Shown in pieces: positions 2,962 to 63,224 of a stretch of 64,000 nucleotides of DNA. Source of the DNA: Enterobacter phage EC-F2. A program made the translations under genes and the position numbers. The stretch is from the sequence record MN508624.2; one strand, written 5' to 3'. Every line of letters starts with the position of its first letter. Within the stretch, counting starts at the first letter, position 1. The notes under the pieces are model-generated. The model saw nothing but the letters and a program-made list of their open reading frames with translations. It searched no databases and was not told the origin of the DNA.

Positions 2962-2986
2962 AAAAGCCCCGAAAGGGGCTTTTCTT
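2962..2986. terminator. bidirectional terminator hairpin AAAAAGCCCCGAAAGGGGCTTTTCTT
   Basis: The hairpin has T/A runs on both sides. It lies between convergent gp25 (+) and the minus-strand accessory block. Confidence 0.6.
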
Positions 2987-3482
2987 ATTCCATCACGATC
3001 CAGCCCATTAGCTGTTGATATCGCAATTCGAACGGGGTGATGAAAGAGCGGTTATTGATAACCTTCGTTCCGTTGTAGGACTTAATCACTTCCTCACCAC
3101 GAAGCACATATTCGTATACTTCGTCCATCGTATCATAACGCACTTCTTCGACTTCGAAGCAGAAGTTGGAATATTCAATCATCCCGATCTTGTTCGCGTA
3201 ACGACGTTCGATACAGCCCTGTTTTTCAATCTGAGTGATCGCAGTATCAATGAACTGCGCAAGTGCTTGCATGAAATTACCACATTCGACTTCACGGCCT
3301 CCGCTTGAGATAGCCAGGTAAACGCGGCTCAATCCATCATTGCCGATGTAACCGATACAGTCACCGCCAATATAGACAGACCAGACTTTACCCATCGGCC
3401 CCATACCCATACGATTCTCACTACCAGAAACACCTTTCAGTAACAGTGCCATGATACCGCCGCGAACGTAATTAATTTTCAT
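2985..3482 (-). CDS. hypothetical protein (165 aa)
   Basis: This is the first minus-strand ORF after gp25. I recognise no motif. Confidence 0.4.
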   Translation of the reverse strand: MKINYVRGGIMALLLKGVSGSENRMGMGPMGKVWSVYIGGDCIGYIGNDGLSRVYLAISSGGREVECGNFMQALAQFIDTAITQIEKQGCIERRYANKIGMIEYSNFCFEVEEVRYDTMDEVYEYVLRGEEVIKSYNGTKVINNRSFITPFELRYQQLMGWIVME

Positions 3483-3492
3483 GATAAGCCCC

Positions 3493-3723
3493 TTATTTTT
3501 TCAGGTTGATTAACCAAGATGGTTGGGTTTCTAAACTAACCGCTTTCCAAGCATATGCAACACTATAACCGGAATACGTCTGACATACAACAGCATTTTC
3601 ATTTAAATATTTCACTTTGTGATCTGCCTCTTGTTCATCCAGGGCAGCACACACGATATTCTTTTCATACACTCCGCCGTTTGGCTGGATAATGGTTTCT
3701 TCAATCAGATAAACGCTGTTCAT
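3493..3723 (-). CDS. hypothetical protein (76 aa)
   Basis: Compact ORF in the minus-strand operon. Confidence 0.35.
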   Translation of the reverse strand: MNSVYLIEETIIQPNGGVYEKNIVCAALDEQEADHKVKYLNENAVVCQTYSGYSVAYAWKAVSLETQPSWLINLKK

Positions 3724-3935
3724 GCTAATTCCTTCTCGATTGCTTCGATGATGTGGAGAACGTAACCGTTCAGTTCTTTTGCTTTATCAGCGGCTTCAAC
3801 CATACCATAACGAGGAACTTCTAAAACGTTCGCACCTTCGAGCAGGTTGCTTTCGATGTCTACGATTACATAGCTCTCACCGATTGCCGCGCCTTTTCTC
3901 CAGTCTTTTACGAACTTCATCATTTTAGCTTTCAT
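3720..3935 (-). CDS. hypothetical protein (about 72 aa, start MKAKMMKF)
   Basis: The ATG at 3935 is preceded by AAAAGGAACGAGAAC. The longer annotated start at 3992 would fall inside the PeSL hairpin. Confidence 0.4.
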   Translation of the reverse strand: MKAKMMKFVKDWRKGAAIGESYVIVDIESNLLEGANVLEVPRYGMVEAADKAKELNGYVLHIIEAIEKELA

Positions 3936-3959
3936 GTTCTCGTTCCTTTTGGCTGTTCC

Positions 3960-4012
3960 GTTTCGATATGTGTAATATAACAAAGCCCTCACGCGAACGC
4001 AAGGGCTTTTTT
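3960..4012 (-). promoter_or_regulatory. PeSL-type cassette #1: stem-loop with embedded sigma70-like early promoter and conserved leader
   Basis: Read on the minus strand: AAAAAAGCCCTTGCGTTCGCGTGAGGGCTTTGTTATATTACACATATCGAAACGG. The -35 TTGCGT lies inside the stem, then a 17-nt spacer, then the -10 TATATT. The leader runs to the SD AAGGAA and the ATG at 3935. Confidence 0.55.
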
Positions 4013-4015
4013 GGA

Positions 4016-4669
4016 TTAACTGAATTTATTATAGAGAGTAAAATTAATCCCTATAGAATTCAGTGCTTTACATGTTGCATCAAGATCTGTTGGTTCGATT
4101 TCGATGATGTATTTCAACGCTGTGTTTACTGGAATGGTTTCTGGTTCTTCGAAAGATGCCAGGGTTGGTGCTTTCACCGTTTCTGGTTCAGCAAGCACGG
4201 TTTTCTTTACGTCAAACGCTTCTTTGAACTTGTTGATTCTTTTTAGCAGGTCATCAATCAATTCGATGTTAGCTCCGTCGAATTGTCTGGTTTGTTCCAG
4301 CATACTCGTAATCTTTCCGTATGTAGTGCGTCTGGTTTGTTCCGTGTAATTCCCGACTTCATAACGGTCGATCCGGTCGATGATTGCCCGAATGTGTCCA
4401 AGATTAGCGCGATCGAAATACGCAATCAGCTTAGATTTTCTGAACACGAACATATATGGAGCATTACCGACAATGTAATGAGTTGCCGTTAGACCAAAAC
4501 TAGGATCGATCAGAATTTTAACCGTGTTGAAATACGGGATTAAATTTATTTCACGTTCAGGTAAACGGAAAACTTCATCTTTAAAGTTCTTCCCAATCCG
4601 GTCGATCTCTTCCAGAGTTTTACCCATCATCGACGAAATTATTTCAATTTTTTTAGATACATAAGCCAT
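4016..4669 (-). CDS. hypothetical protein (217 aa)
   Basis: First ORF of the transcription unit after PeSL #2... no, after PeSL #1 is passed, reading downstream. No motif recognised. Confidence 0.45.
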   Translation of the reverse strand: MAYVSKKIEIISSMMGKTLEEIDRIGKNFKDEVFRLPEREINLIPYFNTVKILIDPSFGLTATHYIVGNAPYMFVFRKSKLIAYFDRANLGHIRAIIDRIDRYEVGNYTEQTRRTTYGKITSMLEQTRQFDGANIELIDDLLKRINKFKEAFDVKKTVLAEPETVKAPTLASFEEPETIPVNTALKYIIEIEPTDLDATCKALNSIGINFTLYNKFS

Positions 4670-6431: not shown

Positions 6432-8678
6432 TTAGATTTTGACTTCTTTTTCTTCCAGGACGATTTCACATTCGAATGATGTGGTTTCCCAGACTTTCCA
6501 GAAATCGGATGGAATATTATCTTCTTTCGGAAGAATATCTTTTGCAGCGATAGAAACTTTGGTTTCTTCGAAGTCCAGATCCGCGAACCATGCATGGGCT
6601 ACTACAACACCGTACATTACGCGACTTAAACGGGCATTCAGTTTACGGACTTCCTGAATCGTTGCCTTTGTCTGCTTATCAAGATACTCGACTACCTGAT
6701 CTTTGTCAAGCGCATCCAGTTCAGATTTCACCTGATCATAAGCCCACAGGATAATCAGGTCGCCGTTGTTCAGTTTCTTCTTACCTTCTTCACGCTTCGC
6801 GACGGTAGCCGCTACAGCAGGAAGGGAGGAAACACCCTTGATTTTCACGTTCAGTTCTTTCGACATGTAAACATCAGTCGATTCTGTGCGCTCAACCTTC
6901 GGAGAGAACCCGTAATCACGAATACCCTGTTCAGACAGCCATTCACCCGCAGCCTCACCAAAGCGCTGTTTCAGCCCTTCTGCGTTGCGCAGTCCGATCG
7001 CGTTGTCACGGAAGAACTTCATAACCTTCTGACGGCCTTTCAGGATTTCCAGACGCACGTTATCAGTCACGAACTCTTTACCGCTTAACCCGCGAGTCAT
7101 GCCACGGTTAACCAGAGGCAGAGAGGTAAAGTCTACCAGAACAGACATACGATCATCACCGATTTTTTCGAGCGGCTTGATAGTCAGGCCAGAAGCACGA
7201 AGGTTTTTCAGTGTCGGAATATCGGTTTCCAGCGGCAGAACTTTAACGTTCACGATACCATCTTTAACGATGGTGAAGTTACGCACCTGCTTAGTTTCGA
7301 CTTTTTCCGGCAGACCGAATTCTTTCTGTTTGCTTTCTGGGATAGTCACATACCCTTCCAGATCCGTGTTGATGGAAATGTTCGGACGGGAACTGTTACC
7401 CACCAGATGTTTAACCGATACTTTGGTTGTGGTTTGGGTAAATTTCGGTGTCCAGACTTCATGCGCTACCATTTGCGCCGCCAGTGCTTTACGTTCTTCT
7501 GGGGTTGCAGCGTTTGCGATCTGTTCGGTCAGTTGATCCAGTGTATCATCTTCTTTCTGTACCGTCTGACGGCCTGTGCGGTTGTACGCCCAGTGCTCAG
7601 AAGACAGGTCGATCACTGTGTCAGTTTGTGCCAGCAGTTCGAGCGCATCAACCAGAGTGAACGCGTTTTCGTCTGGAACCATGTTGTAATCAATACCATC
7701 AACGAAACGCTGTGATGGATCTACAACAGCCTGTGCAATCAGGTCTTTCGCGTTGGAGTAGTCCTGTTTGGTAAAGCAGTTGTCATACGCCTTGATCAGA
7801 CGGACATCACCCAGCTTTTGAAGCACTTTCCATGCCAGATCAGGGTTCATTGTGTGCAGTGCATGATAAAGCACGACATACAGAACTTGCTGTTCGCTGG
7901 CGATGTTCGGATCGAAACCGTCAACATCGTTGATCGCGTTTTCACCCAGCGCCCAGATGTTTTTGATGTGTTCTGGAACCAGCACAACACCGTTTGCAGC
8001 GTTCAGGACATACACGCGCCCTTCGTCCAGGTAGATCGCGTGGGTAGCATCAGCAACTTTGACTTCGATACGTGCGGAAGTCTGCGCGGTGATGATTTCG
8101 TTAAATGCTGGTTCGTATGCGTCGAAACCTTCAACGAATTTGTGCAATGCGTTGGTTGCTTCTGCCATTTTTTCCAGCAGAGGACGGTTTACATAATAAC
8201 CGTATTCCAGGAACGCGATACTGTTGAAAGTCAGTGGCAGAACCGCACACGCTTTCAGAATATCATCGGTACGCCAGCAGTTATCATAACCATCGGTCAG
8301 GAAGATCAGGCTGTTCAGGTTGCCGTTTTCGGATTGCAGATCGGTAGCGATTTCCGCAGCCAGATTCAACGGCTCAACAAAGCCAGTACAACCCGTAGGT
8401 TTCAGGTAACGGTCGATAGCCGCGCAGATGTTAGACAGGTCAGAGACATTGCTAACCTTCTCACCACGGAACACCGTGCCGTAATCGCCTTTGCTGGAGA
8501 AGTACAGGATCGAAACGGTGTCATCCTGTTTAACCAGACTCGCCAGGTTTGCTTTCAGGTGTTTACGGATCTTAGGCAGTTCGTTGTACATTGAACCGGA
8601 TACGTCACACACGAAAACGTGGTTTGTCGGGGTTGGCTTCGATACAGCGTTTTTGAATTCGATATTTGTGATTGACAT
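6432..8678 (-). CDS. von Willebrand factor A (vWA) domain protein with MIDAS motif, 748 aa
   Basis: The N-terminal domain reads VFVCDVSGSM (MIDAS DxSxS), then TGCTGFVEPLN, then FLTDGYDN. These are canonical vWA/MIDAS elements. The remaining roughly 550 aa have no motif I recognise. Confidence 0.65.
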   Translation of the reverse strand: MSITNIEFKNAVSKPTPTNHVFVCDVSGSMYNELPKIRKHLKANLASLVKQDDTVSILYFSSKGDYGTVFRGEKVSNVSDLSNICAAIDRYLKPTGCTGFVEPLNLAAEIATDLQSENGNLNSLIFLTDGYDNCWRTDDILKACAVLPLTFNSIAFLEYGYYVNRPLLEKMAEATNALHKFVEGFDAYEPAFNEIITAQTSARIEVKVADATHAIYLDEGRVYVLNAANGVVLVPEHIKNIWALGENAINDVDGFDPNIASEQQVLYVVLYHALHTMNPDLAWKVLQKLGDVRLIKAYDNCFTKQDYSNAKDLIAQAVVDPSQRFVDGIDYNMVPDENAFTLVDALELLAQTDTVIDLSSEHWAYNRTGRQTVQKEDDTLDQLTEQIANAATPEERKALAAQMVAHEVWTPKFTQTTTKVSVKHLVGNSSRPNISINTDLEGYVTIPESKQKEFGLPEKVETKQVRNFTIVKDGIVNVKVLPLETDIPTLKNLRASGLTIKPLEKIGDDRMSVLVDFTSLPLVNRGMTRGLSGKEFVTDNVRLEILKGRQKVMKFFRDNAIGLRNAEGLKQRFGEAAGEWLSEQGIRDYGFSPKVERTESTDVYMSKELNVKIKGVSSLPAVAATVAKREEGKKKLNNGDLIILWAYDQVKSELDALDKDQVVEYLDKQTKATIQEVRKLNARLSRVMYGVVVAHAWFADLDFEETKVSIAAKDILPKEDNIPSDFWKVWETTSFECEIVLEEKEVKI

Positions 8679-9017
8679 TTAAATTTTCTCGTATTTGAAT
8701 TTTTCTAAAATTTCGTTAACTTTATTGCTTACTGCTTCGACTGTACGATCACACCCGAACTTACGCGCCAGGAGTTCAACGTATTCATCCATCGTAGTGA
8801 GTTTGGATTCAGCAACGTCAAACGCAAGCGCATACATTACCGGATTCCATACCCGAACGATTTGGAGAGTATACTCGTTCAGTTCAAATCGTTCAAGATA
8901 TTTTCGCAAAGAAAATACATCAAACGGTGCGGGACGATCCTGGCTAAAGGGGATCGACTCCCCTAATGCATAGCGAGGCATAACAACACAAACTTCTGTT
9001 TTCAGTTTATTATCCAT
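8679..9017 (-). CDS. hypothetical protein (112 aa)
   Basis: ORF lying between paralog B and the vWA gene. Confidence 0.4.
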   Translation of the reverse strand: MDNKLKTEVCVVMPRYALGESIPFSQDRPAPFDVFSLRKYLERFELNEYTLQIVRVWNPVMYALAFDVAESKLTTMDEYVELLARKFGCDRTVEAVSNKVNEILEKFKYEKI

Positions 9018-10589: not shown

Positions 10590-10630
10590 GGTATGTTCCT
10601 TTTCAGTTTCGTTTCAACAAGGCCAATATA

Positions 10631-10850
10631 TTACACTTCGTTAAACCATGCAAGATATTTCTTCTCTTGTCTGTTCAAAACGTCATAACAAGAGGCGACA
10701 CAAACGGTTTCCCACACAACTTCATCGTAAGCATTCACGAAGCGAATGATCAGAGTTTTGCCATTAGTCATCAAAGCCGGAGTGAACCCAAGTTCTTTAA
10801 CCGCTTTTACTTTCTTCTGGAATAACGCTTTAGTCATGTTAGCCATTTTG
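10631..10850 (-). CDS. hypothetical protein (about 73 aa, start MANMTKALF)
   Basis: A strong RBS AAGGAGGCACAAA precedes the ATG at 10850. Confidence 0.4.
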
Positions 10851-10886
10851 TGCCTCCTTTGTTTCGGTAAAGCTAAGGTATCACTA

Positions 10887-11807
10887 TCAATCAGACAGTG
10901 CAAGCACTTTTTTAATTTGTTTTGCAATTGCTTCGATCACCGGAACCGAAACAGAGTTCCCTGCCTGTTTATATGCTTGCTTCTTGCTTGTCGGGATCTG
11001 GAATGAATCTGGGAAGCCCTGCAAGCGGAAACATTCACGCGGGGTTAATCGTCGTGGGTTCTTCCCGTCCTGTAACACCAGACATTGAACACCGTCCTTG
11101 AAGTATTGGGCTGTTATCGTCCCAGTACACACAGAATCGCTTGTGACGGCCTGATAACCGAAACCCTTACCGTTTGCCTTATTTCGTTCCTTACGCTCTC
11201 TAAAGCCTTTCCATGCGTTATCTGAGAGGGTGAATGAATCATCAGCATCTTCGAGGATGTCGCCTACGCGTGTAGGTGTACGCGGGGGAACAGGAAATGA
11301 AAAGAATACATCATCCAGGAAGCAGACAATAAACACGCGTTCCCGTCTTTGGGGTAGTCCGAAATCCTTTGTGTTCAGGCGTTGATAGAATACGTTATAT
11401 CCTTCGGCCTCCAGAAGCCCGTAAATCGTTTTAAACGTCTTCCCCTTGTCATGGGTTAGCAGTTCAGGCACGTTCTCAAAGAACAACACACGGGGCTTTT
11501 TAGCGCGTATAATGCGGAGGATTTCGAAGAACACCGTACCGCGTACATCATCAAAGCCCAGTTTCAATCCGGCTTTACTGAACGCCTGACACGGGAACCC
11601 CGCGAGCAGGATATCATGATCAGGTACTTTGTTTTCATCAATGGCGAATAGATCACCCTGTAGGTTATCATCGCCCCAGTTTTCGATATATGTTTGCTGT
11701 GCGAACTTGTCGATTTCAGACGTTAAAAGGCATTCGACACCGCCGAACGCCTTATCAAATCCTAATCGAACCCCGCCCACACCAGCGCAGAGGTCAATTA
11801 TTTTCAT
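10887..11807 (-). CDS. dcm: DNA (cytosine-5)-methyltransferase
   Basis: C5-MTase motifs are in the canonical order. Motif I is DLCAGVGG, motif IV is GFPCQAFS, motif VI is ENV and the C-terminal region carries QAGNSV. Confidence 0.8.
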   Translation of the reverse strand: MKIIDLCAGVGGVRLGFDKAFGGVECLLTSEIDKFAQQTYIENWGDDNLQGDLFAIDENKVPDHDILLAGFPCQAFSKAGLKLGFDDVRGTVFFEILRIIRAKKPRVLFFENVPELLTHDKGKTFKTIYGLLEAEGYNVFYQRLNTKDFGLPQRRERVFIVCFLDDVFFSFPVPPRTPTRVGDILEDADDSFTLSDNAWKGFRERKERNKANGKGFGYQAVTSDSVCTGTITAQYFKDGVQCLVLQDGKNPRRLTPRECFRLQGFPDSFQIPTSKKQAYKQAGNSVSVPVIEAIAKQIKKVLALSD

Positions 11808-12073: not shown

Positions 12074-12306
12074 TCCGTTTTAATACCATGTCGGTATGCG
12101 TCAATCCCCAGCGGGGTAATCAGCAACCATGCTTTCGAATTATCGTGATAGCCCGTTACCCTTCGAGCGTAACCTTTTTGAATCAGGGCATCACGCCCTG
12201 ATTTGCTGGGTACGTCATCGAAATCTAAGTCTAGCACCTTAGTTGCATATCCGTAAAGTTTATACAGAACATCAATTTCAGCGCCGGACAATTTAGGATA
12301 CATCAT
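12064..12306 (-). CDS. hypothetical protein (80 aa)
   Basis: ORF only. Confidence 0.35.
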   Translation of the reverse strand: MMYPKLSGAEIDVLYKLYGYATKVLDLDFDDVPSKSGRDALIQKGYARRVTGYHDNSKAWLLITPLGIDAYRHGIKTEWH

Positions 12307-13304
12307 TTGTAATACCCCACAACATGATCGCGGTATACGCGTTCGATGAAATCGTTCCAGAATTCGCGGTCAACTTCTTTCGGATATGTTGAAATCGCTG
12401 CAAGCCGTTCGACTTCGCCCATGACTTCTTCCAGCTTTTCCTGTACGGTTGCGAACGGTACACCGCCAGCTTTAACCAGTTTCAGGAATGCGCTATCAGG
12501 CAGAGGATAAACGATATCACCATCTTTGTAAATCTGGATCAACTGCATACCACCGCGTAAAGCGTGACTTAAAGCCTTCCAGTCGATGCCGTTGTTGGCT
12601 TCTGCTTGTCGTGCGCGTTCTCCGTATTCATCCCAGAGTTTATACACAGACTTACGCATTTCATCGGCTTTGATCGTGAACTGGAATTTACGCCCCAGCA
12701 CTTCATAGAAGTCCTGACAACCAGATTTCATTGTCGTGTCGGTAACGAATCGACAGAACTCGTTTGTAGGGAAACGATCCTTGATGTCAGACACTTTCAC
12801 TTCACGCGTATAGCGTTTCATATCTGGTGTGAATTCCTGAATACCACCGATCGTTTCGGTTTCTTTCAGTACATCGACAACTTCGCGCAGTGCAGCCAGT
12901 CGGGAACCCTTCACGCCATATTTCGCGGCTTGCTTACGAACATAACCGAACAAGCCAGTTAGTTCAGTGGTGTAAAAACGCCAGCGGTTAGCGCGGATAT
13001 ACTGCCAGATTTCAGAGTTAGCGATCAGCTTGTCATCCGAAGCGTGAAGCATATCGAGCGCTACGGTATCACCATCACACGCAAGACTAATGAACTTAGT
13101 CAGACTATACAACTGACGGTCAACGTCGTCTACGGTGTTTTTAGAGCTTTTATCGCCTGTGCTGGTGTCAATAGTCTTCGGGGCTTTCCCCAGGAGAATA
13201 TCGCGCGGGTGCGGGAGAAAGATCCCTTTATAGTCTTTGTCGCTTGTCGGTGTGTTCAGTCCGTACAGGTGAGAACCGAACACGGTTTCCATTACAGTTT
13301 TCAA
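12303..13304 (-). CDS. polymerase-beta-superfamily nucleotidyltransferase (333 aa)
   Basis: The N-terminus reads FGSHLYGLNTPTSDKDYKGIF. This is the GS...10 residues...DxD signature of minimal nucleotidyltransferase-fold enzymes. Confidence 0.55.
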   Translation of the reverse strand: MKTVMETVFGSHLYGLNTPTSDKDYKGIFLPHPRDILLGKAPKTIDTSTGDKSSKNTVDDVDRQLYSLTKFISLACDGDTVALDMLHASDDKLIANSEIWQYIRANRWRFYTTELTGLFGYVRKQAAKYGVKGSRLAALREVVDVLKETETIGGIQEFTPDMKRYTREVKVSDIKDRFPTNEFCRFVTDTTMKSGCQDFYEVLGRKFQFTIKADEMRKSVYKLWDEYGERARQAEANNGIDWKALSHALRGGMQLIQIYKDGDIVYPLPDSAFLKLVKAGGVPFATVQEKLEEVMGEVERLAAISTYPKEVDREFWNDFIERVYRDHVVGYYK

Positions 13305-13699
13305 AATTCAACCCCCAGGGTTTTTGCGATACCGCGCAGTTCAGCGGTAGTGATATTTGGTACACGCGTTACATGTCCACGACCGAACGCGTCTTTGATT
13401 TTATCAGTAAGTTCGACACGGTACAAATGTTCTTTGTATTCGTCTTCGCTGTGATAACCCTGTGTATGGTTATTCCAGTCATTAGCGCTACCAGTTTTTC
13501 GATCAAGTCGCTCAACACGGAAATCTTTAATATCGGTGATATTTGGATCTTCCGACGCATACAGGTATTGACGGGCAACCTTGATCACATACAGGGTGCG
13601 CGGTCGTGGGGTATTGTGATGACTGTATCGACGAATACCAGGATCAAACAGGGTATCACCCACTTTCACATCAGTTAAATCTATCATTTCATTTTCCAA
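13301..13699 (-). CDS. hypothetical protein (132 aa)
   Basis: ORF only. Confidence 0.35.
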   Translation of the reverse strand: MENEMIDLTDVKVGDTLFDPGIRRYSHHNTPRPRTLYVIKVARQYLYASEDPNITDIKDFRVERLDRKTGSANDWNNHTQGYHSEDEYKEHLYRVELTDKIKDAFGRGHVTRVPNITTAELRGIAKTLGVEF

Positions 13700-14758: not shown

Positions 14759-14949
14759 TTAAATTCTTCCATTGCATAGGAAGTAAGATCTTTGAAATAC
14801 CTTGCGGTGTTGCCTTCTGGGTTGTTTGTAATCTCCATCAGGATAACAGCACCATCAACTCCTGCTTTCTTAGCCATGAATGAAATGGCTTCGGTAGCAA
14901 TAATCGTTGCTTTCATAACATCAGCTTTAGAAACGTTGATCGTATTCAT
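14755..14949 (-). CDS. hypothetical protein (64 aa)
   Basis: First ORF downstream of PeSL #2. Its RBS is AAGGAAGAAAA. Confidence 0.35.
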   Translation of the reverse strand: MNTINVSKADVMKATIIATEAISFMAKKAGVDGAVILMEITNNPEGNTARYFKDLTSYAMEEFK

Positions 14950-14964
14950 TTTTCTTCCTTTTCA

Positions 14965-15026
14965 TTATTCATGCGGTATGTGTATATAATACAAAAGCCC
15001 TCACGCGAACGCAAGGGCTTTTTTAA
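14965..15026 (-). promoter_or_regulatory. PeSL-type cassette #2 (identical hairpin to #1)
   Basis: Read on the minus strand: AAAAAAGCCCTTGCGTTCGCGTGAGGGCTTTTGTATTATATACACATACCGCATGAA. The -35 TTGCGT, a 17-nt spacer and the -10 TATTAT are present. The hairpin also terminates the upstream NatV-like gene. Confidence 0.55.
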
Positions 15027-15033
15027 TCTTTTA

Positions 15034-16101
15034 TCAGAGTCCCGTGAAAGCCACAACGATTTGATAGTGGTCATCGAAGAATTCCCCTTGTCGTTGTACG
15101 ACCTCATGTAAGGGCATCCAGAACGCCTCTAGCGCATCGTCAGAACCGCCCATAATGCGGGGCAGACTACCATCATTGTTAGGCTCTAACTTGATGTACT
15201 GCGCCACAGTCGGTTTTGAGAAGTATACGGAACGCTTCGGATGATCGAACAGCATCGAATTACGGATTGAACCACGAATAACCTTTTCAGGAACCTTGAT
15301 CCGTACCTCTTCGAGCAGTTCACGGATCGCACAATCCAGGAACGTTTCATTTGCGTTTTTGTGTCCACCAGGAAGGGCTAACGCGTCTTTACCTGGGGCA
15401 AACTTACGGCGAATTACCAGCAGGTGATTGTTACACACAACCACACTATCACCCGTGCAGCAGTTTAGCGCTTCTGGGTATGGGTAGTTTTTGAATTTCT
15501 CCAATTCGCTTTCCCATTTCTCGTATTCGTAGTACAGTCGCCAAAATGTATCCGTCATCATCCATGAATTGATATAACTCACAGTAGACGAAGGAACATA
15601 ACGAGATAGTTTCTTATCCCATCCATTCTTATGCAAAAAGATGGTTGGTCGCAAATCGGTCGCAGATAAATCTTTCCCGTCAACCTTAACTGGATCTACC
15701 GGAACATGAGTCCATCCAAACGCTTTCAGCCAGTATGAATCAGCATCCTTTTCGTAACCATAGATCGCGATGTTGTCGCCTTTGGTTTCGTCGATTGCTG
15801 TACGAACAGAGGTTTTCCATTTTTCTTCGTTGTAAAGATAATCAGGAATATGAGCAAATTTAACACGACAAACATCTTCGTATTTGTATTCAGTCATCAG
15901 CCACGAAAAGATCATTCTTTCGCGTTCGTTCGCTGTCAGCGGGTTTAAAACGTTAGGGTAAGCATATGCTGAACCCAGAAGGATGTAAACGGTTTTTGCT
16001 TCTTCGAGTGCTTTACGCACCATTGCTGCATGACCATTATGGAAGGGTTGGAATCTGCCAATTACGACAGCTTTATCAAATTGTTTCATAACGTGCTCCA
16101 C
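15034..16101 (-). CDS. natV: bifunctional NMN adenylyltransferase / Nudix hydrolase (NatV-like)
   Basis: The N-terminus VVIGRFQPFHNGHAAM carries the (H/T)xGH nucleotidyltransferase motif of NadM-type NMNATs. The C-terminus PGGHKNANETFLDCAIRELLEEVRI is a Nudix box. The architecture is that of the phage KVP40 NatV type. Confidence 0.75.
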   Translation of the reverse strand: MEHVMKQFDKAVVIGRFQPFHNGHAAMVRKALEEAKTVYILLGSAYAYPNVLNPLTANERERMIFSWLMTEYKYEDVCRVKFAHIPDYLYNEEKWKTSVRTAIDETKGDNIAIYGYEKDADSYWLKAFGWTHVPVDPVKVDGKDLSATDLRPTIFLHKNGWDKKLSRYVPSSTVSYINSWMMTDTFWRLYYEYEKWESELEKFKNYPYPEALNCCTGDSVVVCNNHLLVIRRKFAPGKDALALPGGHKNANETFLDCAIRELLEEVRIKVPEKVIRGSIRNSMLFDHPKRSVYFSKPTVAQYIKLEPNNDGSLPRIMGGSDDALEAFWMPLHEVVQRQGEFFDDHYQIVVAFTGL

Positions 16102-16115
16102 GTTTAAAGGTTAAT

Positions 16116-16213
16116 CATAAAACAGACGCAATCACCAATACACCAAGAAAACCGCCAATAAAGCCGAAGAATAGCGAAATGAAGATAGTAAGGATGATCT
16201 GTTTTATGTTCAT
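16116..16213 (-). CDS. hydrophobic mini-protein (32 aa, single TM: MNIKQIILTIFISLFFGFIGGFLGVLVIASVL)
   Basis: Found by manual translation; it is below the track cut-off. Confidence 0.25.
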
Positions 16214-16231: not shown

Positions 16232-16260
16232 AGAAAGCCCCCGCTCTGGGGGCTTTAAAC
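16232..16260 (-). terminator. terminator hairpin AAAGCCCCCGCTCTGGGGGCTTTAAA
   Basis: GC stem immediately 3' of the SPFH gene on the minus strand. Confidence 0.5.
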
Positions 16261-16262
16261 CC

Positions 16263-17189
16263 TTATTTACGAGAATCGAAAATCACTTTACCAGCGTAAT
16301 CAGAACCCATGACAGTTTGAGGTACACCGCCCTGATATTTTTCCGCGATGGTCTGCTGAACATCAAGTTCTTTCCAGCGGATCATTTCTGGGGTGATTGT
16401 GCGTTGCAGAATGGCGTTCGCTTCGGCTTCTTTCTTAGCCGCATACAGACGGGCATCAGCATCACGTTCGTTAGCTTGTGCAGCGTTGCTACGGGCTTCT
16501 TTGTCGGCTACTGCCTGAACAACCGCCTGTTGAGCGATTTGCTCTTTACGCGCAAGTTCTGCTTTTTCTGCATTCACCTGTTCTTCACGAATTTTCGTGT
16601 TTTCAACCTGTTTCTTGATCGCTTCCGGCAGGTCGATATCCTGCAAGAATACCTGTTTCACGGTGTAACCGTAAGGACGGGCATACTCTTCTACTTCCTG
16701 CTGAATCGCGATCTGTAGCTGGCTTTGAACTTCTGCATTATACAGATCCTGTGCTTTCGGTACAGATTTACCGAACTCACGGACAGTTGACAGAAGTTTT
16801 TCAGTCACATATTTATCCAGCGCCTGATCCTGACTACCCGCATTGATACGGTTGATCGGGGCTTTGCTACCATCGAACTGTAACATCACGGTCATATCCA
16901 CAGTGGATTTGAATTTATCCTGGGACGGAACCTGCAATTTGTCAAACTTCATTGCGATGTCTTTGGTGTTGAACACCTCGAAATCAGCCAGTGGGTTTAC
17001 CAGGTGGAAGCCAGGCAGAACAGGCTTCGGTGAAACTTTACCCATGAAGGTTTGAGTTTTTACCGTACCATCCTGAACGATAGTGTACGAGTTCGGAACC
17101 AGCCACAGTGCGGCGATTACGCCCAGAGCGATCAGAGTGGTTTTCTTTGGGTTGTTTACGATAGTGTTTAAGTTCATCATTATTTCCAT
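16263..17189 (-). CDS. SPFH/band-7 (prohibitin/HflC-like) membrane protein
   Basis: An N-terminal TM segment TLIALGVIAALWLV is followed by an SPFH-like core with TIVQDGTVKTQTF and PVLPGFHLVNPLADFEVF. A long Ala/Glu/Gln-rich coiled-coil tail follows, as in HflK/HflC. Confidence 0.55.
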   Translation of the reverse strand: MEIMMNLNTIVNNPKKTTLIALGVIAALWLVPNSYTIVQDGTVKTQTFMGKVSPKPVLPGFHLVNPLADFEVFNTKDIAMKFDKLQVPSQDKFKSTVDMTVMLQFDGSKAPINRINAGSQDQALDKYVTEKLLSTVREFGKSVPKAQDLYNAEVQSQLQIAIQQEVEEYARPYGYTVKQVFLQDIDLPEAIKKQVENTKIREEQVNAEKAELARKEQIAQQAVVQAVADKEARSNAAQANERDADARLYAAKKEAEANAILQRTITPEMIRWKELDVQQTIAEKYQGGVPQTVMGSDYAGKVIFDSRK

Positions 17190-17250
17190 TGGGTTTATGT
17201 TTCAATTCGATAGTTATTCTATCATCACTTTTTCGCTTGTCAAACTCTTT

Positions 17251-17640
17251 TTAAGAAAGTTTTGTCAGCTTGTAAATCGTTTGATAGCACAAGCCTTTGA
17301 TCTCGTCCAGGACGTTCTTCAATGAACTATCTACTGAATCATAGATTTCGTTGGCTTCATCGGCTATTTTACGGAGATACGCGACCGTGTCAAGCACATT
17401 TTCTGTTTTTAATACGGGTTTGTATCGACCAGTAATGCCTATATGGATTTCGGTGAATTTATCAACCAAATCCTGCATATCTTCGTAAAACCCTTCAAAT
17501 GCTTTATGCTGTGAATATGAACCAGTCGCAAAATGTGCGCTGTGCATATAGGTTACAGACATTAAGCAAGTGCCAATAAAGGCATCAATTTTACTCGCGG
17601 TATCGCGTTCTGTTACTTCGTTAAACGTCTGCATCTTCAT
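17251..17640 (-). CDS. hypothetical protein (129 aa)
   Basis: ORF only. Confidence 0.35.
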   Translation of the reverse strand: MKMQTFNEVTERDTASKIDAFIGTCLMSVTYMHSAHFATGSYSQHKAFEGFYEDMQDLVDKFTEIHIGITGRYKPVLKTENVLDTVAYLRKIADEANEIYDSVDSSLKNVLDEIKGLCYQTIYKLTKLS

Positions 17641-17643
17641 CCC

Positions 17644-17934
17644 TTATGAACGATGAATAGCGGCGAATTCACTTGCAACCCGTAGCCCTAAACGTTTACA
17701 TTCGGGTTCGGATTTACATTGCTTCTGCTGCCATTTTCGTTCCATGTAATTATAGAATAGTTCACTGGTATTTACGCTGGGAGGGATGGTGTCAAGATAT
17801 ACCTGTAGCGCCGCATTGATATAGTAATCGAACTCTTTGGCGACTACTGACCTATCATCAGCATGTGATGACGGAGACAAGATTAACAAACCAAACATCA
17901 GCGCTTTAGATATGCGTTTAATGTTCATAAGCAA
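17644..17934 (-). CDS. small secreted/periplasmic protein (signal peptide, then mature N-terminus DDR...)
   Basis: The cleavable signal peptide is MNIKRISKALMFGLLILSPSSHA|DDRS. It is a paralog of 20628-20948. Confidence 0.45.
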   Translation of the reverse strand: MLMNIKRISKALMFGLLILSPSSHADDRSVVAKEFDYYINAALQVYLDTIPPSVNTSELFYNYMERKWQQKQCKSEPECKRLGLRVASEFAAIHRS

Positions 17935-21570: not shown

Positions 21571-21975
21571 TTAAGCCCCTACGCGCACAAAGCGATCTTC
21601 AATTGCATCATTAACACATTCGTAAATGCTAACGTCATTCGGGACGTGCTTACGAATACCCACTTTCACGATATCCATGATCTCTTTGTTGCTACCCCAC
21701 ACGTTCAGGTTGAAGTAAACACCGCCGCTATGAATTGTGTTGTTGCCAACATCAAGATACGTATCTTGACTTTCGCAGATAAACAGTTTGCGTTTTTCTT
21801 CACCATATGCGAAGTAAATGCTGAAAGATTCCATGCGATGACGATCGACCGTGATGGTGTCTACTTTAACCTTTGGATCTTTGTTCAGTTCGTCCAGCAC
21901 ACCCTGAATGATGTGCAGCATGTTAGGCTTGATGATAGTTGGATGACTGGTAATAACTCGATGTGATGTGCTCAT
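21571..21975 (-). CDS. hypothetical protein (134 aa)
   Basis: First ORF downstream of PeSL #3. Its RBS is GAGGATTAAATT. Confidence 0.4.
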   Translation of the reverse strand: MSTSHRVITSHPTIIKPNMLHIIQGVLDELNKDPKVKVDTITVDRHRMESFSIYFAYGEEKRKLFICESQDTYLDVGNNTIHSGGVYFNLNVWGSNKEIMDIVKVGIRKHVPNDVSIYECVNDAIEDRFVRVGA

Positions 21976-22008
21976 AATTTAATCCTCAATAGTTGGTACA
22001 CACATAAT

Positions 22009-22041
22009 AAAAAAGCCCCTGCGAAATTGCAAGGGCTTTTT
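22009..22041 (-). promoter_or_regulatory. PeSL-type cassette #3
   Basis: Read on the minus strand: AAAAAGCCCTTGCAATTTCGCAGGGGCTTTTTTATTATGTGTGTACC. The -35 TTGCAA lies in the stem, with a 17-nt spacer and the -10 TATTAT. Confidence 0.5.
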
Positions 22042-22042
22042 A

Positions 22043-22693
22043 TCAGATAATGCGTTTTTCTTCTAACAGCTTCGCGGTATGGTTAACCATGCGAGCGTAA
22101 TCACGGGCTTCTTTCTTTGAATACTTGAATCCCGCGTTGTAACTCGCCAGCGCCTTTTTCAAGTCGCCTTTGTGGTAATCAAGCCAGTATTCCAGTTCGT
22201 GAAGTGCATACTTGGAACCACCCCGAAGGGTTTCGAGCTTATTGATTACTACGCGTTTGGAATATGATTTATCCATTCGTGCGGACGCGCTACGGGCTGT
22301 TACTTGAAAACAACCATAAGCATGATGATTCTTTTTGCCTTTCCCTACGTTCTCACATGCGCGAGACTCGATCCAGGCAATAGCCGCTAAATGATATCCC
22401 AAACGTTTCGATGTTTCCGATTCAACTGGCTTTGCAGTTTTGAGATCGTATTCGTTACCGATCCTGAAAGCGTACTCCAAAACCTTTTTCTGCTTTGGTG
22501 TAATATCATCCAATTCCTTAACATAACTGGGGGCATTGGCTGGCGCTTTCTTCATTACTGTTGCTTGTTGTAGCGGTAAAGTTGACTTCACAGAAGGGAG
22601 TGTTTGGATAAACTCTCCTAACGGATCAGTCGCCGCGTTGCCAGAAAAAGAGCATAAGGCAACAACAAAAGGTAGTATCCATTTGAATTTCAT
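22043..22693 (-). CDS. lytic transglycosylase (SLT domain) with N-terminal signal peptide
   Basis: The signal peptide is MKFKWILPFVVALCSFSGNA. The SLT motifs are AIAWIESRA (catalytic Glu-Ser), GCFQV and ASYNAGF. Confidence 0.65.
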   Translation of the reverse strand: MKFKWILPFVVALCSFSGNAATDPLGEFIQTLPSVKSTLPLQQATVMKKAPANAPSYVKELDDITPKQKKVLEYAFRIGNEYDLKTAKPVESETSKRLGYHLAAIAWIESRACENVGKGKKNHHAYGCFQVTARSASARMDKSYSKRVVINKLETLRGGSKYALHELEYWLDYHKGDLKKALASYNAGFKYSKKEARDYARMVNHTAKLLEEKRII

Positions 22694-23229
22694 GGGCTTT
22701 CCTTATTATAAAAAGTTCCAAAATTTAACAACGCTGATTTTTTATACACATTACTTGCTTCTTCGGGATCATCAAAAGAACCGAGATATGTCACTTTACC
22801 ATACAATGTTATTTGCGCAATCCATTTTTGGTTTGAGCTATTCCATGTAACACCAGTAAATCCAGAAGTGTTGTTTTTCTGCATACCTTTCTTTTGTGAA
22901 TTTTGTGTGTTGGTTACTTCTTGTAAGTTTCTAATACCATCACCAAAAGCAACGCCTTTTTTATGATCTATCATGACAGGGAGATTGCCAGTAGAAACAT
23001 AATAGACTATTCGATGTCTTCTAAGCTGTTTTCCTTTGAAGTTTATAACTGTGTATCCGTCCTTTCTTAGTGTTCCTGCAACAGAACCAATTTTAATCTT
23101 TCTATTGGTTGATACAGTCCATACACATAGTCCGGTTGACGTATCAACACTAATATAGTTAAGTAATTCGTCTATCAGGTCTTTTTCTTCTGATAGCGTT
23201 CTTTCTCCCCATCCATAAGATTTCTTCAT
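22690..23229 (-). mobile_element. free-standing HNH homing endonuclease with AP2 DNA-binding domain (#1)
   Basis: The HNH core reads RHRIVYY...VMIDHKKGVAFGDGIRNLQEVTNTQN. The AP2 domain reads SGFTGVTWNSSNQKWIAQITLYGKVTYLGSFDDPEEA. It is a paralog of 25613-26137. Confidence 0.65.
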
Positions 23230-27012: not shown

Positions 27013-27082
27013 ACATACCTCTATTATGAAAATACCCTATATGGGCTACACAGGGTATTTACGGTTTAAGAGGCGCAACGTT

Positions 27083-27508
27083 TTACATGTAACCCCAAAT
27101 TGCATCTTCCGCGCGATCGCGTTTCCAGCGAATCGTCATTTCAACACTCTCCTGTTTGTCATCAGGAGGAAGTTTATCATTATTGATTTGTTCAATATAT
27201 GCTTGCGCATCTGCTTCGCTACGGAACAACGCATGGAAATTATAATGGTTGCGCCCAGTTACGTTACGATCATCCAGAGAGAATTGACCTTTATTTTCCC
27301 AATCATCATACACAGTGATTCCGTTAACAAACAGCCCCAGCCCACGATGTTCACGCGGGAAGCCAGTGATGATATGTTTTCGACCCATCTGTGCCTTTTC
27401 ACCAGTGATACTGATTACTTCGTACAGGATTGCGCCAGGTTTGATATCTTTCAGGACAGCACGTTTTTCAAAAGCGTTCATAATGTATTCCTCACAATTA
27501 GTTTTCAT
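27083..27508 (-). CDS. hypothetical protein (141 aa)
   Basis: ORF only. Confidence 0.35.
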   Translation of the reverse strand: MKTNCEEYIMNAFEKRAVLKDIKPGAILYEVISITGEKAQMGRKHIITGFPREHRGLGLFVNGITVYDDWENKGQFSLDDRNVTGRNHYNFHALFRSEADAQAYIEQINNDKLPPDDKQESVEMTIRWKRDRAEDAIWGYM

Positions 27509-32459: not shown

Positions 32460-32535
32460 GATGTTTTCCTTTCTCTGTTTCGTTTCGATGTGTGTAATAT
32501 AACAAAAGCCCCTGGCGGTTGCAAGGGGCTTTTTA
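32460..32535 (-). promoter_or_regulatory. PeSL-type cassette #4
   Basis: Read on the minus strand: AAAAAGCCCCTTGCAACCGCCAGGGGCTTTTGTTATATTACACACATCGAAACGAAACAGAGAAAGGAAAACATC. The -35 TTGCAA, a 17-nt spacer and the -10 TATATT are present. Confidence 0.55.
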
Positions 32536-34179: not shown

Positions 34180-34255
34180 GATGATTTTCCTTTCTCTGTT
34201 TCGTTTCGATGTGTGTAATATAACAAAGCCCCTGCATTACTGCAAGGGCTTTTTT
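34180..34255 (-). promoter_or_regulatory. PeSL-type cassette #5
   Basis: Read on the minus strand: AAAAAAGCCCTTGCAGTAATGCAGGGGCTTTGTTATATTACACACATCGAAACGAAACAGAGAAAGGAAAATCATC. The -35 TTGCAG, a 17-nt spacer and the -10 TATATT are present. Confidence 0.55.
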
Positions 34256-34259
34256 GATA

Positions 34260-37527: not shown

Positions 37528-37862
37528 GCGGGTACATATTCCACTTTGACAGGTTTTGCGATAAGGCGTTCTTTAGTGAAGCCTTGCCCGTTACAGATAT
37601 CACAAGTAACATTGAAGTCTTCCATCTGATCAACCCAGCCAGAATCCGGTAAGCCAGAAGGATACGTGTTAACACGTTTGACTTCGAACCCTTTACCCTC
37701 GCATTTCGGGCATTTGTGTGGGTACTGGGATTTAACCATACTCAGCAGTTGCCCCAGCGTTGTTGAACGATCGAAGCGTTCGACCAGTGCCATTACATCA
37801 GCAATACGAATCGAACCAGCATCAATAACGGTATACAGGTTTTTCGGTACATTTGAGCGCAT
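37524..37862 (-). CDS. zinc-ribbon protein (about 113 aa, CPKCEGKG...CDICNGQG)
   Basis: Two CxxCxGxG-like pairs. The start is MRSNVPKN. Confidence 0.35.
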   Translation of the reverse strand: MRSNVPKNLYTVIDAGSIRIADVMALVERFDRSTTLGQLLSMVKSQYPHKCPKCEGKGFEVKRVNTYPSGLPDSGWVDQMEDFNVTCDICNGQGFTKERLIAKPVKVEYVPA

Positions 37863-38223: not shown

Positions 38224-38235
38224 ACCAGCCAGTAA

Positions 38236-38290
38236 AGTTTCATGATTGCCTCCTTTGTTTCGACACCCCTAATATAACAAAAGCCCCTGC
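38236..38290 (-). promoter_or_regulatory. PeSL-type cassette #6
   Basis: Read on the minus strand: AAAAAAGCCCTTGCATTAGTGCAGGGGCTTTTGTTATATTAGGGGTGTCGAAACAAAGGAGGCAATC. The -35 TTGCAT, a 17-18-nt spacer and the -10 TATATT are present. Confidence 0.5.
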
Positions 38291-38309
38291 ACTAATGCAA
38301 GGGCTTTTT

Positions 38310-38867
38310 TCAAATATTTTTCAACATGTGTAGTTGAGGCGGACAATCTTTTGAAGCAATCAGGCGATCCAGGCGTGACATAACGCGTCTGTAGCCGTCA
38401 TACTCGAACTTGATTTTGGGTGCGATGTAGTTTACATGGATTGCGTTTCGCGTGTTCAGGCTCAACGTGTACTCAGGGATAACGGTTCGGAATCGTAAAG
38501 CAATCACTGGCTTTTCGTGAGCAACCGAATCATCCATGTTTTCTAACATCTGGACGGTGAACGCACAGGCAAACACTTTGCCATTAATCCGGCGATATGC
38601 AATGACTTCTTGCATACCTTCGTTTTTCGCTTTCACCGCGTAATACAGAACGTTACACGAATAATGTTTAGCGAGACTATTAAGAATTTCACTGTAGATC
38701 GCAAAGTCTTTTTTGACTGACGCGGAACGATCCAGGAATCGGTCTGCGATGTGATCTGTAGTCATTGAAACCTTTGTCACATACCAATCACTTAACGCTT
38801 TACTGAAATTTTGGTTAACTTCTCTGCGTAAGTTATTGATAACATACATCAATCGTGCTCTGTTCAT
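38310..38867 (-). CDS. hypothetical protein (185 aa)
   Basis: ORF only. Confidence 0.4.
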   Translation of the reverse strand: MNRARLMYVINNLRREVNQNFSKALSDWYVTKVSMTTDHIADRFLDRSASVKKDFAIYSEILNSLAKHYSCNVLYYAVKAKNEGMQEVIAYRRINGKVFACAFTVQMLENMDDSVAHEKPVIALRFRTVIPEYTLSLNTRNAIHVNYIAPKIKFEYDGYRRVMSRLDRLIASKDCPPQLHMLKNI

Positions 38868-58762: not shown

Positions 58763-60793
58763 ATGATTTCAAAACTTAACCCGTTACCTAAGATCCCGTT
58801 TGTTGATGGAGTCCCTACGGACTCCACTCAAACTAAGATCCAATGGATTATTAACGGCGAAACTCTCAATGGTGCAAACACCAAAACCACTAACGAGGGT
58901 TCATTAAACAGAAGCGGTGTTATGGTTCAACAGAACGCCGTACAACTGGAACAAAACACAAATACACAGACATCGAAGATCAACGAAGTCATTGATCAGG
59001 TTAACCTCATTAGTGAAAACCTTGCCGCAATCTCTGATGAAAGTGTAATTGACAAGCTGGATCAGGTTGTTTCTGATGTATCTGTTCTTAAAGTCGATAT
59101 GACTGGCGTTCAGAATACCGTAGCAGGTCAAGTGCTCAAAGTAAATGACATCGAAACAGAAATTGGTGTATGGGATTCGACAACCGATCCTAAACACCGC
59201 ACGATCCGCAAAGATATCATTTTCCTGAAAGGTGAACTGGGTGCATATCCTGGGTTTAACGAAAACGGTGATGTAGATTCTTCGTCTACTGGTTCCGGCA
59301 TGAAATACAAAATCATGACGAACGCACAGGCGATTTCTATCCACGAAGGGCGTATTACCCGCCTTGAAGATGACTGGGCGAACTCAGACGTAGGACACCT
59401 AACCGATGAAGTTACCGATCTGCGTAACGAAATGGGGCCGAAACATTTGGCAACCTTCGAATCCGTATATGTTCGCTTAAATGGTATCGGTACGCGTTTA
59501 ACAGGCGTTGATAACGAACTGACAAGCATCAACCAGTATATCGGTCGTAGTGGTTCTGGTGGCACTGGTAGCATCGTTAACCGTATGAATGTAGCAGAAC
59601 AGAACATCGTTACTTTGCAAACTCAGGTAAACGATCCCGTTGTTGGTGTTCTGCCTCGCGTGATTGTGCTCGAAAGTTCTGTTGGTAACTCTCAGGTTCC
59701 TGGTAGTATCCGTTATGATATCAGTACCATGAAGCGAGACATTGGCGATCTTAGTATGATTGTCGGTGAATCAAGTGATGATGGTCTGCGCGGAGAAATG
59801 GCGCAGGTATTAACGGACATCGGTGCTGACGTACAACCAACGAGTATGAAAGGCCGTATTCTGAACCTGGAAAACACCCAGCGTGACGATCATCAATCAC
59901 TCATTGATGTTACTGCAATTGTTGGTAATACATCGTCTGGTCTGGTAGCTGCTAATATTGCGATGGGTAAAGCCGTCTATGGTGATGCAGCAAGTTCAGA
60001 TCCGTTCCTGAAAGACGGTATTCAGAAAACTGCTCGCGATAGTAAAGCTGCAATCGGCGTGAACACTACTGGTTCTGAAACTGGTTTATATAAACTTATT
60101 TCCGATCTGACTGCTCGCGTTGCTGCTCTTGAAAGTGGTTCTGGTGGCGATCTCACGACCCGTGTTACTGAACTGGAAAACAGCAAAGTATCTCACAATG
60201 ACCTTGATTCTGCTCTGGTTCCGTATATTACAGAAGTTGAAGCAGATGCGAAATATGTTGCAAAAACTGCTCCAATGGTGTTCGACCAGAACATTTCTGG
60301 AAACAGTGACTACACCGAAGGTGGTACTATTTCGTTCAGCGTAGTTGTTTCGGGTGGCGCTACCCCTTACACGTATCAGTGGAAGAAAGATAATGCCAAC
60401 GTAGGAACCAACAGCGCAACATTCTCTAAAGCGGGGGCAACCTCTGCTGATGATGGTGTTTACAAAGTTGTCGTGACTGATGCGGAAAATACTGTAATTA
60501 CTTCTAACGAAATTACTGTTACCGTTCATCCGGTTCTGTCATTAAGCACTGATATTTCTGATGTGACTGTAACTACTGGCGACCCGCTAACGCTTCATGT
60601 TGTGGCAACTGGTGGTAAATCTCCATACGCGTATCAGTGGAATAAAGACGGCTCTGATTTGAATGGTGAAACTCTGGATACTCTGACAGTAGCATCGGCG
60701 GCAAGCGAAAACGCTGGCGTGTACTTTGTTTCTGTTCTTGATGATCTGGGTAACACAATCGAATCAACTCACGCAACCGTAACGGTTCAATAA
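58763..60793 (+). CDS. wac: fibritin-like neck whisker protein (wac) with two C-terminal Ig-like domains
   Basis: About 480 aa of heptad-rich segmented coiled coil (LEQNTNTQTSKINEVIDQVNLISENLAAISDESVIDKLDQVVSDVSVLK...) sits between gp12 and gp13. It is followed by two tandem 90-aa Ig-like repeats (GGATPYTYQWKKDNANVG...GVYKVVVTD and GGKSPYAYQWNKDGSDLNG...GVYFVSVLD) in place of the T4 foldon. Confidence 0.65.
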   Translation: MISKLNPLPKIPFVDGVPTDSTQTKIQWIINGETLNGANTKTTNEGSLNRSGVMVQQNAVQLEQNTNTQTSKINEVIDQVNLISENLAAISDESVIDKLDQVVSDVSVLKVDMTGVQNTVAGQVLKVNDIETEIGVWDSTTDPKHRTIRKDIIFLKGELGAYPGFNENGDVDSSSTGSGMKYKIMTNAQAISIHEGRITRLEDDWANSDVGHLTDEVTDLRNEMGPKHLATFESVYVRLNGIGTRLTGVDNELTSINQYIGRSGSGGTGSIVNRMNVAEQNIVTLQTQVNDPVVGVLPRVIVLESSVGNSQVPGSIRYDISTMKRDIGDLSMIVGESSDDGLRGEMAQVLTDIGADVQPTSMKGRILNLENTQRDDHQSLIDVTAIVGNTSSGLVAANIAMGKAVYGDAASSDPFLKDGIQKTARDSKAAIGVNTTGSETGLYKLISDLTARVAALESGSGGDLTTRVTELENSKVSHNDLDSALVPYITEVEADAKYVAKTAPMVFDQNISGNSDYTEGGTISFSVVVSGGATPYTYQWKKDNANVGTNSATFSKAGATSADDGVYKVVVTDAENTVITSNEITVTVHPVLSLSTDISDVTVTTGDPLTLHVVATGGKSPYAYQWNKDGSDLNGETLDTLTVASAASENAGVYFVSVLDDLGNTIESTHATVTVQ

Positions 60794-60796
60794 TTA

Positions 60797-62506: not shown

Positions 62507-62558
62507 ATACGTTATATGGGTATAGGCGGAAGTCTATACCCTCTTCGAAGAGGATTTT

Positions 62559-63173: not shown

Positions 63174-63224
63174 AAAATTTTTGGCTACTGGTATAATAGT
63201 TCGCTGCGTAACTACATTGTTCTT

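Follow-up and report, generated by a model that had tools for sequence, protein, structure and literature searches.

The natV gene of Enterobacter phage EC-F2, encoding a predicted bifunctional NMN adenylyltransferase/Nudix hydrolase, and its probable partnership with a distant nadV

A stretch of 64,000 nucleotides of Enterobacter phage EC-F2 (sequence record MN508624.2; referred to below, at its full length, as the window) carries on its minus strand, at 15034..16101, an open reading frame (ORF) that an earlier note, made from the letters alone, had taken for natV, a gene for a nicotinamide mononucleotide (NMN) adenylyltransferase (NMNAT) fused to a Nudix hydrolase in the manner of phage KVP40. 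The locus raises the question of whether such an enzyme is really encoded here in intact form, and of where its pathway partner NadV, a nicotinamide phosphoribosyltransferase, is to be looked for. The best explanation, to which we give a probability of about 0.88, is that the ORF is the natV gene of a Pseudotevenvirus whose partner NadV is encoded elsewhere in the genome, the two jointly making up the published NAD+ reconstitution pathway 2 (NARP2), or "salvage II". Three parts of that explanation are predicted: the activities of the enzymes, a nadV in this very genome and a role against host defence.

The ORF at 15034..16101 was confirmed as genuine. Counted from a GTG at 16101 it is a maximal ORF of 355 amino acids, but four codons inside lies an ATG at 16089 which is preceded by GGAG 7 nucleotides upstream and would give 351 amino acids. 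Because of this GGAG, and because the coding sequence is 1056 nucleotides in relatives (the orthologue in Cronobacter phage Dev_CS701 is annotated at that length, 351 amino acids plus stop), the gene is placed at 15034..16089, with the ATG the more likely start over the GTG. It is full length and internal stops are absent. The coding sequence and the parts of its product are as follows.

15034..16089, minus strand: natV coding sequence, 351 amino acids plus stop (domain and family matches; start as in Dev_CS701)
15520..16089, minus strand: N-terminal NMN adenylyltransferase domain of NadM nucleotidyltransferase type, about residues 1-190 (Pfam, PRK13793, and the NMNAT half of the solved structures 2QJO and 2QJT)
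16030..16059, minus strand: GRFQPFHNGH, residues 11-20, including the (H/T)xGH ATP-binding motif as HNGH at 17-20 (motif match and alignment)
15649..15666, minus strand: SATDLR, residues 142-147, the second nucleotidyltransferase signature SxTxxR, of ISSTxxR type (motif match and alignment)
15082..15447, minus strand: C-terminal Nudix hydrolase domain, residues 215-336, a predicted ADP-ribose (ADPR) pyrophosphatase (Pfam; Nudix half of 2QJO and 2QJT)
15298..15366, minus strand: Nudix box GHKNANETFLDCAIRELLEEVRI, residues 242-264 (match to the motif GX5EX7REUXEEXGU, and alignment)

Both halves of the protein were recognized, with matches well above chance. Pfam CTP_transf_like matched residues 9-66 (E 8.5e-9) and Pfam NUDIX residues 215-336 (E 2.6e-14), each exceeding its gathering score, and the NCBIfam NMNAT model PRK13793 covered residues 1-190 (E 5e-26). 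NCBIfam models of the bifunctional NMNAT/Nudix enzyme spanned the protein end to end (E 1.4e-74), and PHROG 395 was matched with E 7.6e-99. Among solved structures, residues 7-338 of 2QJO aligned with residues 4-349 of NatV (E 2.5e-53), and residues 6-342 of 2QJT/2R5W aligned along its whole length (E 2e-45). The catalytic motifs were matched by regular expression and were further evaluated in an alignment of 10 sequences, comprising NatV, 7 phage homologues (31-75% identity) and 2 solved bacterial enzymes. In the HxGH region Gly11, Arg12, Phe13, Gly19 and His20 are invariant and His17 is nearly so; in SxTxxR, Thr144 and Arg147 are invariant; and in the Nudix box Gly242, Arg256, Glu257, Glu260 and Glu261 are invariant, with Glu248 nearly invariant. 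The catalytic residues of the (H/T)xGH and Nudix motifs, the loss of which the earlier note had held to be telling against its assignment, are thus conserved, and the NatV-type architecture that it had proposed was borne out in domains, motifs and homology of KVP40 type. As judged from these matches, natV is a full-length and intact phage member of the NadM-Nudix/NatV class, in which NMN adenylyltransferase and Nudix hydrolase are joined in one chain.

The phage to which the gene belongs could be placed from its relatives. In the natV region Enterobacter phages ENT3, BHU20 and Entb_46 show 98.5% identity, and many phages of Cronobacter, Klebsiella, Enterobacter and Citrobacter show 91-96%; the window is collinear, in reversed orientation, with ENT3 97250..33872. 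Taxonomy lines of the relatives read Straboviridae, Pseudotevenvirus, and by this kinship the phage is a Pseudotevenvirus of the RB43/RB16/GAP161 group, T4-type phages of Enterobacter, Klebsiella and Cronobacter. A placement in Karamvirus was ruled out by the same taxonomy lines. Within Pseudotevenvirus NatV proteins show amino-acid identities of 89-99%, and for the Slopekvirus orthologues the figure is about 75%; the closest database NatV is that of ENT3, at 99.4%, and the exact allele is absent from the collections searched. Ratios of nonsynonymous to synonymous substitution (dN/dS) for natV were 0.067 against ENT3, 0.149 against Dev_CS701 and 0.086 against the Slopekvirus Matisse, and the gene is under purifying selection, as these values indicate. 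Many orthologue records already bear the annotation NMN adenylyltransferase/Nudix hydrolase. The gene is an ordinary orthologue of one for which annotations already exist in dozens of genomes of Pseudotevenvirus and Slopekvirus, and in architecture, motifs and context it shows no departure from known examples.

The partner gene was sought with NadV sequences from database records, namely that of Klebsiella phage Roth27 (a nicotinamide phosphoribosyl transferase by its annotation) and that of ENT3; a human NAMPT sequence served as bait only, for finding annotated phage NadV genes. The earlier note had seen no NadV ORF within the 64 kb, and tblastn with Roth27 NadV likewise gave no NadV-like match in any frame of the window at E of 10 or below. 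In ENT3, tblastn gave a 476-residue match to Roth27 NadV at 74% identity, corresponding to a stop-free ORF of 477 amino acids at 7486-8919 on the minus strand, with NAMPT_N and NAPRTase domains, the product of which matches solved NAMPT structures with E of 1e-105 (bacterial) and about 1e-85 (human). The distance from natV to nadV in ENT3 is about 72 kb, and if the genome studied here is collinear with that of ENT3, nadV would be expected about 25 kb past the right end of the window. In Roth27 and leE the gene is flanked by a cluster of RNA ligase 2/DprA-like genes on one side and a dam methylase gene on the other. NadV was found in all 25 of the best natV-region relatives. Counts over the phage collection were closely matched as well, with 61 records for NatV at 80% identity or more and 62 for NadV at 90% or more, and with 115 for NatV and 117 for NadV in the band of 60-80% identity, which includes the Slopekvirus records sampled. 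A passage in a 2020 paper, itself citing earlier work, states that 50 of 50 NatV phages then known also carried nadV. Presence of nadV elsewhere in the same genome is strongly favoured by this distribution, and of the two alternatives that the earlier note had left standing it is the one that gains from the intact ENT3 gene some 72 kb away and from the joint occurrence in 25 of 25 relatives.

The other alternative was that NatV might work with a host enzyme in place of a phage NadV, relying on host-derived NMN. It would agree with the absence of NadV from the 64-kb window and with a split nadV in one relative, Cronobacter phage leE. We consider it highly improbable, since all 25 closest relatives carry both genes, NadV is intact in ENT3, a phage of 98.5% nucleotide identity, the 97-100% identity of NadV in 45 relatives implies strong retention, and the NatV phages covered by the statement in the 2020 paper all had nadV. 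At 2977-4399 of leE (vB_CsaM_leE) the annotation of nadV consists of two coding sequences, of 954 and 486 nucleotides, that overlap, and tblastn covers the gene in two pieces; this is either a frameshift or pseudogene or else a sequencing error, and was seen in the one relative only.

In T4-type phages natV and nadV are not linked, and in ValKK3, a Schizotequatrovirus as is KVP40, a search of the 20 kb to each side of natV did not find nadV. In Sinorhizobium phage phiM19, Caulobacter phage CcrSC and Stenotrophomonas phage BUCT608, nadV lies directly downstream of natV. The products also differ in how far they vary within the same phages. NadV is nearly invariant among Pseudotevenvirus (27 records at 99% identity or more and 45 at 95% or more, within a range of about 97-100%), whereas NatV is more variable, with 3 records at 99% or more and most at 90-95%; the two halves of the pathway differ in their rates of evolution or recombination.

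With an enzyme in the window and a partner predicted outside it, the reactions can be proposed from the characterized cases. NadV, being of NAMPT type, would convert nicotinamide and phosphoribosyl pyrophosphate (PRPP) to NMN; the N-terminal domain of NatV would convert NMN and ATP to NAD+ and pyrophosphate; and the C-terminal Nudix domain would most likely cleave ADPR to AMP and ribose-5-phosphate. Together NadV and NatV would raise or restore NAD+ during infection and could neutralize defences that act by depleting it. Osterman et al. (bioRxiv 2024.02.11.579819) described the KVP40 pair as NARP2, in which Nampt forms NMN out of nicotinamide and PRPP and NAD+ arises when Nmnat adds AMP to it, and reported that defence by type I Thoeris and by DSR2 was abolished by KVP40 NadV and NatV. 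In Table S2 of the same work the Nampt proteins of GAP161 (JN882287_00240) and RB16 are labelled "Nmnat-associated", which means that this phage group was already catalogued as having NARP2; the start of the GAP161 Nampt sequence is identical to that of ENT3 NadV. The bacterial "salvage II" consists of nadV and nadM, and NadM has as its Nudix half an ADPR pyrophosphatase, solved with ADPR bound. Two statements of the earlier note have to be amended here. It had NadV and NatV rebuilding NAD+ from ADP-ribose and nicotinamide, which is the chemistry of NARP1; NARP2 uses PRPP, nicotinamide and ATP, and ADPR could enter it only indirectly, by Nudix cleavage to ribose-5-phosphate and, as we infer, through host PRPP synthetase. 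Its list of defences countered (Thoeris, DSR, SIR2-type and some CBASS effectors) holds for type I Thoeris and DSR2, as shown for KVP40 NARP2, and is an extrapolation for the remaining systems.

The benefit of the pathway might lie mainly in metabolism and not in counter-defence, a larger NAD+ pool giving redox support to nucleotide synthesis or serving ADP-ribosylation of host proteins; the chemistry would be unchanged and the selective reason different. NARP2 raised NAD+ also in cells free of any defence system (Osterman et al. 2024), consistent with earlier reports on KVP40, the nadV-nadM pair is ordinary salvage in bacteria, and NadV and NatV map to separate early-gene regions, not to an anti-defence island. 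Against this stands the loss of Thoeris and DSR2 defence in the presence of KVP40 NadV and NatV. The two roles are compatible and the sequence does not distinguish them, and we regard a mainly metabolic benefit as possible, if doubtful.

It has also to be considered whether a task of its own against defence falls to the Nudix domain, the destruction of ADPR-derived immune signals (for example the cyclic ADPR isomers of Thoeris) or of free ADPR, independently of NAD+ synthesis. The strict conservation of the Nudix catalytic residues would fit this circumstantially, as would the transcriptional separation of natV from nadV by about 72 kb, but the domain lines up collinearly with its ADPR pyrophosphatase counterpart in bacterial NadM-Nudix, ordinary ADPR hydrolysis suffices as an account of it, and evidence for other substrates was not found; such a task is very unlikely. 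An equally slim chance is given to a broader proposal, that NatV, and in particular its Nudix domain, has some further role that does not depend on NadV, in removing ADPR or ADPR-derived immune signals or in a membrane-associated function with the products of neighbouring genes. Behind it stand the lack of linkage between natV and nadV, the position of natV in a small early unit of its own (with an SPFH gene and a 32-residue peptide) between hairpin/promoter cassettes, and the 89-99% identity of NatV set against the figures for NadV. Were such a role real, the faster evolution of NatV would reflect an arms race.

Several points weigh against the explanation preferred here, that of a NatV acting with a distant NadV in NARP2. 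NatV scores 251 bits where the cut-off of the NCBIfam bacterial equivalog models (sub-models of PRK05379) is 397; as those models describe narrow bacterial clades, the shortfall is attributed to divergence of the phage clade and not to a different architecture, and the family as a whole is not defined by such a score. The penultimate residue of the Nudix box is arginine where the consensus has glycine, but the solved Synechocystis enzyme 2QJO has arginine there too and 2QJT has asparagine, so that the residue is family-typical and no defect. That the genome studied here has nadV is deduced from relatives, and the two coding sequences in leE indicate that loss is possible. In the literature found, no activity or phenotype was reported for any Pseudotevenvirus NatV. 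Finally, a decaying or non-functional remnant, to which the sub-threshold bacterial equivalog scores alone would point, has a probability close to nil, and a pseudogene was ruled out by the intact catalytic motifs, the full length and the dN/dS of 0.07-0.15.

The surroundings of natV were evaluated for the signals that delimit it. Directly 3' of the gene lies a compact element of predicted terminator and promoter character, one of six copies that could be aligned within positions 1-40000 of the window.

14955..15025, minus strand: predicted terminator/promoter cassette of PeSL type, immediately past the 3' end of natV, about 70 nucleotides (terminator scan, fold, six-copy family)
3943-4013, 14955-15025, 21958-22052, 32465-32535, 34186-34256 and 38226-38320, minus strand: copies of the cassette family, ahead of early genes

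A terminator scan located the natV 3' hairpin at 14993..15022 on the minus strand, with a stem of 13 base pairs; its fold of -18.9 kcal/mol has a z of -4.65, and none of 200 shuffles was as stable. The next gene begins at 14949. Inside the stem lies TTGCGT, followed by N17 and TATTAT, which fits the consensus published for PeSL promoters of nt-1/KVP40, TTGYVH-N17-TAWWAT, but has a weak -35 and failed a strict sigma70 consensus scan. The aligned cassettes have in common AAAAAAGCCCTTGC, a variable loop, a 3' arm of GGGGC/GGGC-TTT, GTTATATTAC or a sequence close to it, and a leader that is conserved. Stem and loop sequences vary between copies while stem pairing is maintained, and the hairpin core at 3982-4008 is identical to that at 14994-15020, with 0 chance matches expected. 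Like the PeSL cassettes described from T4-like phages (Arbiol 2010; Comeau 2014), these elements consist of a hairpin with an A-run, a G-C-rich stem and a T-run, overlapped by a candidate sigma70-like promoter, and they repeat in hyperplastic early regions; they differ in that the -35 of the natV cassette is weak (TTGCGT) and that the promoter and terminator roles are predicted. The PeSL cassette that had been proposed on the 3' side of natV accordingly stands as a sequence feature, on the strength of the 13-base-pair hairpin, the family of six and the fit to the consensus.

On the 5' side the gene is separated from an SPFH gene by a short unannotated ORF and a second hairpin.

16115..16213, minus strand: strongly hydrophobic ORF of 32 amino acids, MNIKQIILTIFISLFFGFIGGFLGVLVIASVL, unannotated, between the SPFH gene and natV
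16234..16256, minus strand: hairpin AAAGCCCCC-AGAGC-GGGGGCTTT, then TACAAT, between the SPFH gene and the 32-residue ORF (read from the sequence)
16263..17189, minus strand: SPFH/band-7 gene upstream of natV (Pfam Band_7, E 7.6e-18)
17216..17243, minus strand: strong promoter-like site before the SPFH gene, TTGACA-16-TAGAAT with TG (promoter scan)

The 32-residue peptide is identical in ENT3 and in Dev_CS701, where it is left unannotated, and in Matisse its visible C-terminal two-thirds is near-identical, with mostly synonymous changes. Given this conservation the ORF probably encodes a real small membrane protein, and it is probably in the same transcript as natV; its family match was to LydA-holin only, weak and sub-threshold (E 0.009). 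The hairpin at 16234..16256 with its TACAAT forms a degenerate second cassette 5' of natV, and Dev_CS701 has TTGACT-N16-TATAAT at the matching spot. Transcription of natV would probably proceed either from the site before the SPFH gene or from the degenerate cassette promoter by this hairpin.

Further genes were recognized on both sides.

13301..13699, minus strand: phage protein with a ProQ-C-terminal-like domain
17251..17640, minus strand: DUF5856 protein ("starvation-inducible transcriptional regulator" in some records)
17644..17934, minus strand: protein of the T4-like antiholin family

An ORF of 333 amino acids at 12303..13304 on the minus strand matched Pfam RlaP, a pol-beta-type nucleotidyltransferase of an RNA-repair pathway (E 1.3e-10), and the "thioredoxin" label on its Dev_CS701 orthologue looks like a misannotation. 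Over most of the window identity to ENT3 is 96-98.5%, and at 37860-62541 it falls to about 91%, which suggests mosaicism. Stretches of the window without a blastn block of more than 500 nucleotides to ENT3 were seen at 10614-10909, 22658-23221, 27067-27161, 37714-37860, 60257-60794 and 62541-63174; these short unaligned stretches are probably small indels or replacements.

The main value of these findings is a correct annotation, together with the likelihood, which is high, that this T4-type phage of Enterobacteriaceae has a complete NARP2 pathway. The gene belongs to a pathway characterized in KVP40 and catalogued for this phage group, and only two points about it are mildly unusual, the lack of linkage to nadV in T4-type phages and the greater variability of NatV. 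The assignment bears on the choice of therapeutic Klebsiella, Enterobacter and Cronobacter phages against hosts with NAD+-depleting defences such as Thoeris, DSR and SIR2-HerA.

In comparison with known systems, the nearest counterparts are the NatV genes of other Pseudotevenvirus and Slopekvirus phages (GAP161, RB16, RB43, leB and ENT3; KP15, KP27 and Matisse), which are the same gene with allelic variation only and occupy an identical position, with the SPFH gene on one side and a series of small early ORFs on the other. Another counterpart is the NatV of KVP40 and its like, for which Osterman et al. 2024 cite Lee et al. 2017. The comparison was made with ValKK3, not with KVP40 itself, and here NatV is 40% identical over 98% of its length; the layout of NMNAT and Nudix domains and the similar length are shared, as are the T4-type myovirus background and, on the prediction made here, an NAMPT-type NadV encoded at a distant locus of the same genome, whereas the hosts and genera differ (Vibrio and Schizotequatrovirus as against Enterobacteriaceae and Pseudotevenvirus). 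In ValKK3 a separate second gene annotated "nicotinate-nucleotide adenylyltransferase" was observed at 21676-22302, three genes (about 660 nucleotides) downstream of natV; no counterpart of it was seen next to natV in the window. The bacterial NadM-Nudix enzymes, Synechocystis slr0787 (2QJO) and that of Francisella tularensis (2QJT/2R5W), are collinear with the phage protein end to end at 33-36% identity, have motifs in common with it that include the FDxPxRS and DDA..W..DH..I blocks, and are likewise paired with nadV; they differ in that the phage gene stands outside any nadM-nadV operon and without NrtR control. As for the sister pathways, NARP1 (Adps and Namat) and NARP3 (PnuC and a NadR-like protein) have with NARP2 the common end of restoring NAD+ during infection, and differ from it in route, NARP1 using ADPR and nicotinamide by way of ADPR-pyrophosphate (ADPR-PP) and NARP3 importing nicotinamide riboside.

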